A DNA stretch of 64,000 nucleotides from the NCBI RefSeq assembly GCF_013167455.1, contig NZ_CP038328.1, one strand, 5' to 3'. Of the stretch, positions 46,293 to 46,552 are shown in pieces. Source of the stretch: Escherichia coli O157:H7. Its GTDB lineage: Bacteria > Pseudomonadota > Gammaproteobacteria > Enterobacterales > Enterobacteriaceae. Position numbers and translations under genes: made by a program. Under the pieces are notes generated by a model, which was not told the DNA's origin, searched no databases, and saw only the letters and a program-made list of their open reading frames with translations. The number at the start of each line of letters is the position of its first letter. The first letter of the stretch is position 1.

Positions 46293-46324
46293 AATCTATT
46301 CTCGTGGTCATCGACGCAAAGTCA

Positions 46325-46495
46325 TCAGGCGCGTATCCTCGCAGATCTACGCTCACGATGCGACAATTTAATCGGTTCTTCATCGGGTGGTGGGTCAGGC
46401 ATGGGTTGCGGGCGAGGGATCGGATCGGGCACTGGAACAGGATCGCCAGGAATCGGTTCAGGGACAGGAATTTGCAAATAAATAAGTGTCGTCAT
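46325..46495 (-). CDS. Possible small proline-rich protein
   Basis: Unlisted 56-aa ORF MTTLIYLQIPVPEPIPGDPVPVPDPIPRPQPMPDPPPDEE... with strong RBS GGAGGGAAAT. Confidence 0.3.
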   Translation of the reverse strand: MTTLIYLQIPVPEPIPGDPVPVPDPIPRPQPMPDPPPDEEPIKLSHRERRSARIRA

Positions 46496-46552
46496 ATTTC
46501 CCTCCGGTCATTGGGTGGACTCTTAAAGGGTAGACGCTGATAAATAACAGGC

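Follow-up and report, generated by a model that had tools for sequence, protein, structure and literature searches.

The spacer between the small RNA gene fnrS and the gene dbpA in Escherichia coli O157:H7 contains a short open reading frame. This raises the question of whether the frame encodes a genuine protein, and what such a protein might do next to these two genes. The DNA analysed, termed here the window, is a stretch of 64,000 nt from contig NZ_CP038328.1 (assembly GCF_013167455.1). A sequence-only reading of the window had proposed that the spacer carries an unannotated gene for a small proline-rich protein. As described below, the frame is a real gene and the protein is made, and the gene has a name. 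The analysis also separates a core that is under selection as protein from two blocks at the 3′ end of the gene that are constrained as nucleic acid.

The open reading frame and its setting

The features of the locus are as follows.

44919-46292, minus strand: dbpA, with a GTG start (open reading frame listing)
46325-46495, minus strand: ynaL coding sequence, 56 codons plus a TGA stop (open reading frame listing, RefSeq and Pfam)
46500-46505, minus strand: Shine-Dalgarno sequence GGAGGG, 4 nt 5′ of the ynaL ATG (from the sequence)
46527-46554, minus strand: candidate ynaL promoter, putative, with TTGCCT (46549-46554), a 16 nt spacer and TACCCT (46527-46532), directly after the fnrS terminator
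46557-46674, minus strand: fnrS sRNA gene (Rfam RF01796, 134.8 bits)
46561-46580, minus strand: stem of the intrinsic terminator of fnrS, within the fnrS gene

Positions 46293-46552 comprise the entire dbpA-fnrS spacer, and the open reading frame fills 46325-46495 of it. The frame starts with ATG and encodes the 56 amino acid sequence MTTLIYLQIPVPEPIPGDPVPVPDPIPRPQPMPDPPPDEEPIKLSHRERRSARIRA, in which 16 of the 56 residues (29%) are proline. The sequence GGAGGGAAAT, which is the reverse complement of 46496-46505, is found immediately 5′ of the ATG and contains the Shine-Dalgarno sequence. The sequence-only reading had described a 56-codon minus-strand frame with a strong ribosome-binding site and a proline-rich product, located between fnrS and dbpA, and all of this is borne out.

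The length of the frame on its own is no evidence for a gene, because 159 of 2000 shuffles of the spacer (8%) contain a complete ATG open reading frame of at least 56 codons. What raises the frame above chance is that the ATG and the position of the Shine-Dalgarno sequence are kept across genera, and that the dN/dS ratio in the core of the product is 0.057. The Shine-Dalgarno sequence is GGAGG(G) at the equal position in most genera and AGAGGG in strain K-12.

ynaL probably has a weak promoter of its own just past the fnrS terminator, as judged from the candidate hexamers. The motifs (T)CTACCCT(T/A)AAAG and TTTTTTGCCT are conserved across genera, but the spacing between TTGCCT and TACCCT is only 7 nt in three Citrobacter loci. 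A consensus promoter scan called no promoters, the candidate ynaL site being too weak. From this candidate, ynaL transcription would be predicted to begin about 7 nt past TACCCT, near position 46520. The C that precedes TA in the candidate −10 sequence TACCCT, and the TAA that follows, recall −10 regions of the sigma-S type.

Two further reading frames of 76 and 78 amino acids, rich in Gly, Arg and Trp, overlap ynaL on the opposite strand (46251-46540, plus strand). They were rejected as genes and are by-products of the run of CCN codons. Elsewhere in the window, RefSeq annotates a 15 amino acid frame as ‘protein YnaN’ (gene label ydaN) at about 47767-47814 on the minus strand. It lies immediately upstream of zntB and is possibly a leader.

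Identity, detection and alleles

The open reading frame is, with high confidence, ynaL, a small-protein gene already known to be situated between fnrS and dbpA. A query of 601 nt around the frame has matches in 5392 of 5426 complete E. coli genomes, and RefSeq annotation under these matches reads ‘ynaL: (proline-rich small) protein YnaL’. A ynaL coding sequence is found in RefSeq at the corresponding coordinates both in a 100%-identical genome (WP_001625136.1) and in K-12 MG1655. The product matches Pfam family PF23677 (YnaL) with 131.7 bits relative to a cutoff of 27 (E 8.8e-39), and residues 1-56 align with profile positions 1-56 of 57. All columns that are invariant in an alignment of 30 YnaL sequences are present in the window protein, including the family core DPxPxPDPIPRPQPMPDPPPDEEPIK(L/M)SH...RSARIRA, and only the usual final Cys is missing. 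The window gene therefore shares with K-12 ynaL and the rest of the family the fnrS-ynaL-dbpA locus, a full-length profile match and the K-12 sequence bar the last residue. The description of the frame as unannotated does not hold, in view of the RefSeq gene, the Pfam family and the orthologues that NCBI has named in many genera.

The small-protein literature also contains the gene. In the work of VanOrsdel et al. (2018; PMC6001520), ynaL is placed between fnrS and dbpA and given a sequence that ends in ...RIRAC, and the K-12 protein printed there is identical to the window protein bar the terminal Cys. A chromosomally SPA-tagged YnaL was seen by immunoblot (PMC6001520). A 3′ SPA tag can, however, stabilize a natively unstable peptide. 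According to the same authors, ynaL had already been among the positives, then unidentified, when Nakahigashi et al. (2016) screened by tetracycline ribosome profiling, and it may form an operon with dbpA (PMC6001520). In a literature search on YnaL function and dbpA regulation, this work was the sole mention of YnaL.

The open reading frame is translated into a genuine small protein. The frame is conserved and under strong purifying selection, and the tagged protein is visible on immunoblots (PMC6001520). Ribosome profiling and conservation of the frame in Enterobacteriaceae had been put forward as checks on the gene; the first has a reported positive signal (Nakahigashi et al., 2016, via PMC6001520), and with the second the frame is found conserved there and into Erwiniaceae.

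The ynaL of the window is a minority allele. It ends ...GCC TGA TGA, with the two TGA codons at 46325-46330 on the minus strand, and encodes 56 amino acids without the terminal Cys. K-12 and most E. coli strains end ...GCC TGC TAA and encode 57 amino acids with Cys57. Relative to K-12, TGC-TAA is thus replaced by TGA-TGA, and the Shine-Dalgarno sequence is GGAGGG instead of AGAGGG. The exact 60-nt window allele was found in 349 of 5362 complete E. coli genomes, O157:H7 strains among them. A further allele, with an in-frame 33-nt deletion, is present in E. coli strain E69 (L010, 2501-2641); it encodes 46 amino acids and has lost PVPEPIPGDPV from the repeat region.

Family range and selection on the proline-rich core

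Homologues that carry PF23677 are found in Escherichia, Salmonella, Citrobacter, Enterobacter, Klebsiella, Leclercia, Lelliottia, Kosakonia, Pseudocitrobacter, Silvania and other genera. An exhaustive profile search added only a few further clusters, including those of Phytobacter, Scandinavium, Erwinia and Mixta, and the YnaL family is therefore confined to Enterobacterales.

Two features within the coding sequence are of importance here.

46376-46444, minus strand: proline-rich core, residues D18-E40, DPVPVPDPIPRPQPMPDPPPDEE, amino acids conserved and third codon positions free
46385-46393, minus strand: PPP codons, P35-P37, flanked by D on both sides (D-PPP-D), a polyproline motif of the type for which EF-P is required

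Over 30 orthologues, the core DPVPxPDPIPRPQPMPDPPPDEE has a dS of 1.22 and a dN of 0.069, i.e. a dN/dS of 0.057. Third positions of the CCN, GAY and CAR codons are saturated with changes, whereas the amino acids are almost invariant. Saturated dS together with so low a dN/dS shows that selection acts on the protein. By comparison, the N-terminal 15 or so residues are variable, with a dN/dS of 0.35. The ratio for the core is still 0.064 in two compared loci that lack dbpA, and this purifying selection in dbpA-less lineages means that the function of the core is independent of dbpA. The functional part of YnaL is its acidic X-Pro repeat core (DPxPxPDPIPxPQPxPDPPP), which is kept from Escherichia to Erwinia with or without dbpA downstream.

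Within the core, the stretch D34-P35-P36-P37-D38 stands out. P35 and P37 are invariant and P36 nearly so, and the PPP is kept in the distant forms from Erwinia, Phytobacter and Mixta, several of which have a second DPPP just 5′ of the stop. The run of at least three consecutive prolines in a strong context that marks EF-P-dependent polyproline proteins is present in D-PPP-D, and for this reason YnaL synthesis would probably need EF-P.

The AlphaFold model of YnaL has no secondary structure (pTM 0.23), and a search for a relative in the PDB found none. The model fits an extended, polyproline-II-like peptide for the core.

Gene neighbourhood across genera

In Enterobacteriaceae the gene order is zntB, fnrS, ynaL, dbpA and, convergently, ttcA. 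In more than 33 loci, which represent about 10 genera, dbpA begins 14-32 nt past the end of ynaL. ynaL is also found where dbpA is not adjacent, as two types of loci show. In Phytobacter diazotrophicus and a related locus (L038, L039), ynaL is followed by an intrinsic terminator and a convergent ttcA, and there is no dbpA. In Erwinia psidii (L040, L041) the order is ynaL-ttcA-dbpA. In each of the 10 further loci tested, those without dbpA included, fnrS immediately precedes ynaL. The constant neighbour of ynaL is fnrS, not dbpA.

The YnaL proteins of these four loci (L038-L041) have no RSARIRAC tail. They end in DPPPHR, DPPPYR or DPPPHM, with a second polyproline right before the stop.

Two nucleotide-invariant blocks at the ynaL 3′ end

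The 3′ end of ynaL and the start of dbpA contain the following elements.

46358-46375, minus strand: block 1, CCGATTAAATTGTCGCAT, codons P41-H46, nucleotide-invariant (dS 0.019)
46328-46348, minus strand: block 2, AGATCTGCGAGGATACGCGCC, codons R50-A56 including the rare codons AGA, AGG and ATA, nucleotide-invariant (dS 0.011)
46290-46304, minus strand: dbpA translation start, with a weak Shine-Dalgarno-like CGAGAA (46299-46304) and GTG (46290-46292), 32 nt past the ynaL stop

Both blocks are within the last 16 codons of ynaL, and 9 freely varying nucleotides lie between them. The body of dbpA, by comparison, has a dS of about 1.4, and codons 2-8 of dbpA have one of 0.30. Block 2 is retained even in forms of the gene in which it cannot encode RSARIRA. 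In three lineages (K. cowanii L042, L043, L044) it follows premature stops that are independent of one another. Frame-shifted forms of the gene read it as DLRGYAP (+1 frame, P0123) or as EICEDTRL (+2 frame, P0133). Neither block is found in Phytobacter or Erwinia psidii, in which dbpA does not adjoin ynaL. The blocks thus persist without translation and in other reading frames, but not in loci that lack an adjacent dbpA; the constraint therefore acts on the nucleic acid and is linked to the junction of ynaL with dbpA. On the comparative evidence, the most likely role of the blocks in Escherichia, Salmonella, Citrobacter, Enterobacter and Klebsiella is in the control of dbpA expression.

Several other causes of the invariance were considered and rejected. 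Selection for rare codons does not account for block 2, which is conserved even when it is not translated. An overlapping +1-frame open reading frame (46237-46383) has no conserved start (GAC for GAT in several genera), and its end shifts with indels in the spacer. A promoter scan gave no sigma-70 site inside ynaL on either strand, and inspection by eye revealed no acceptable −10 sequence in the blocks. Autoregulation of DbpA by mimicry of the hairpin 92 region of 23S rRNA was assessed by local alignment of the ynaL 3′ end with 362 nt of 23S rRNA; the alignment score of 9, relative to a shuffle mean of 9.5, gave reason to discard it. Pairing of FnrS with block 2, or with the start region of either ynaL or dbpA, was dismissed likewise, as no duplex beats those of dinucleotide shuffles.

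An RNA structure of a conserved kind is also not supported. The ynaL region has no Rfam match, even at E ≤ 10. A stable fold conserved across ynaL-dbpA finds no support in the minimum free energy (z-score 0.04), and there is almost no covariation; the consensus fold has −8.9 to −10.6 kcal/mol and changes with the alignment. A duplex between block 1 plus the preceding GAAGAA and the dbpA start has −10.6 kcal/mol, a value equalled by 23-59 of 1000 shuffles (2-6%). Its pairing arms are GUCGC/GUGAC and GAAGAA/UUUUUC, and its support is marginal. The sequence GCG-AGGAUA-CGC in block 2 looks like a protein-binding site with GGA in a loop, similar to the sites of CsrA.

Likeness to known systems

MgtL of mgtA and MgtP of mgtCBR are proline-rich leader peptides whose translation is coupled to a downstream gene, and CadC is an EF-P-dependent polyproline protein. 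MgtL has been proposed to act by ribosome destabilization. As in these systems, ynaL is short, its product has a PPP and an abundance of Pro and acidic residues, and the gene lies directly upstream of a weak translation start. ynaL differs from MgtL and MgtP in that no alternative RNA hairpins were found for it, it has no homology to them, and it is selected where no downstream gene exists.

There is also a likeness to the proline-rich spacer of TonB (PF16031 TonB_N; NF008084), which YnaL resembles in its X-Pro repeat, its acidic and basic residues and its predicted extended form. The matches are weak, with E values of 3.6e-4 and 0.87 and scores of 20.5 relative to a cutoff of 315 bits and 10.6 relative to a cutoff of 33 bits, and they are limited to the Pro-rich stretch. 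Membership in the TonB family was rejected, as the scores are below the cutoffs and YnaL has neither a membrane anchor nor a C-terminal TonB domain; the likeness is compositional. Other profile matches (internalin and similar proteins) are of low complexity and far under the cutoffs. No homology of YnaL to TonB, phage families or any solved structure emerged from searches.

Proline-rich antimicrobial peptides include apidaecin, oncocin and Bac7, and apidaecin has the motif IPQPRPP. YnaL has motifs of the PRP/PQP type that resemble those of the antimicrobial peptides, e.g. IPRPQPMP beside IPQPRPP. However, the core of YnaL is acidic and not cationic, the protein is made inside the cell, and there is no common descent.

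Proposed role and alternative explanations

Most characterized E. coli small proteins bind and modulate a larger partner. By analogy with these, and considering the composition of the peptide, YnaL is most likely a trans-acting protein, a short ligand of the polyproline-II type that would bind a larger partner and modulate it. Its synthesis would need EF-P, and a weak promoter immediately past the fnrS terminator would drive ynaL. In Enterobacteriaceae, translation of ynaL may in addition be coupled to the expression of dbpA via the conserved junction. We infer these roles with falling confidence, from the trans-acting proline-rich ligand, to the need for EF-P, to ynaL-dbpA coupling.

The last of these rests on the start of dbpA. 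In every locus with an adjacent dbpA, the gene has a GTG start (TTG in Kosakonia cowanii) and a weak CGAGA Shine-Dalgarno sequence, and coupling of its translation to that of ynaL is probable on this account. ynaL also has the placement of a leader-peptide gene, i.e. it is a short frame on the same strand immediately upstream of dbpA, with a spacer of 14-32 nt in every Enterobacteriaceae locus that has an adjacent dbpA. The mRNA of the ynaL core (46387-46464, minus strand) is 46% C and 18% G, with a C/G ratio of 2.57 that is beyond the 99th percentile of the window, and is rut-like. With so C-rich and G-poor an mRNA, Rho-dependent polarity on dbpA is conceivable when translation of ynaL lags.

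These properties can be extended to a model whereby ynaL is mainly a cis-acting leader, an upstream open reading frame of dbpA, and the peptide has no function in trans. The speed of the ribosome through the EF-P-dependent D-PPP-D and the cluster of AGA, AGG and ATA codons would set the output of dbpA, by termination-reinitiation, by unmasking of the dbpA start or by Rho-dependent polarity on the C-rich ynaL RNA. The close and widespread linkage of the two genes speaks for such a leader, as do the GTG or TTG start and weak Shine-Dalgarno sequence that dbpA always has, the rut-like core mRNA and the suppression of synonymous change at the ynaL 3′ end and in dbpA codons 2-8. A ribosome paused at PPP would also cover the GAAGAA arm that is able to pair with the dbpA start. 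In addition, a proteomics study shows that DbpA, EF-P and ArgRS rise together in exponential phase, which is a correlation only (PMC13393375). However, the model has difficulty with the loci in which a terminator and a convergent ttcA follow ynaL and there is no dbpA, yet purifying selection on ynaL continues (dN/dS 0.064), and with Erwinia psidii, where ynaL persists with ttcA between it and dbpA. Conservation extends over a 23-residue stretch and not over PPP alone, no significant RNA structure is predicted, and lineages with a premature ynaL stop about 60 nt before dbpA persist. A pure leader of dbpA is weakened because dbpA-less lineages keep ynaL, and we consider it somewhat unlikely; a leader function may, however, be added to the role of the peptide.

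A related proposal combines the blocks with translation of ynaL. The helicase DbpA acts in maturation of the peptidyl-transferase region of the 50S subunit. The final 16 codons of ynaL might also serve as a nucleic-acid element that controls dbpA, and translation of ynaL, demanding of EF-P and ending in rare codons, might gate DbpA synthesis in a feedback loop between ribosome performance and ribosome assembly. As a whole this scheme is tentative and unlikely to be correct in full.

Alternatively, YnaL, being rich in D, E and P and difficult to translate, may work as a nascent chain that reports on the performance of the ribosome and its peptidyl transferase, by arrest or by ribosome destabilization as with MgtL, and the output need not be dbpA. 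The invariance of PPP would be expected of such a chain, as would the ends of distant orthologues (DPPPHR, DPPPYR or DPPPHM), which place a second polyproline at the point of termination, and the composition and X-Pro periodicity resemble those of MgtL. Nevertheless, the Phytobacter-type loci have no downstream gene to receive such a signal, and tagged full-length YnaL accumulates in the cell (PMC6001520). This explanation is quite doubtful.

That the frame arose by chance and owes its conservation wholly to some non-coding element, RNA or DNA, in the fnrS-dbpA spacer is hardly credible, for although shuffled spacers yield equally long frames and the 3′ third is truly constrained at the nucleotide level, the saturated synonymous change (dS 1.22) beneath invariant amino acids refutes it for the core, the ATG and Shine-Dalgarno position are kept across genera, the region has no Rfam match and the protein has been detected experimentally (PMC6001520).

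Significance

As a gene call, ynaL adds nothing new, since RefSeq, Pfam and the small-protein literature already have it. It is of use as a positive control, i.e. a real small protein that was recognized from sequence alone. The question of YnaL function is narrowed, with a core that acts at the protein level independently of dbpA, fnrS as the constant neighbour and a 3′ nucleotide element specific to the junction. The conserved nucleotide blocks where ynaL meets dbpA deserve to be recorded as a modest lead. If this element controls dbpA, it would represent the first described regulation of this ribosome-assembly helicase.
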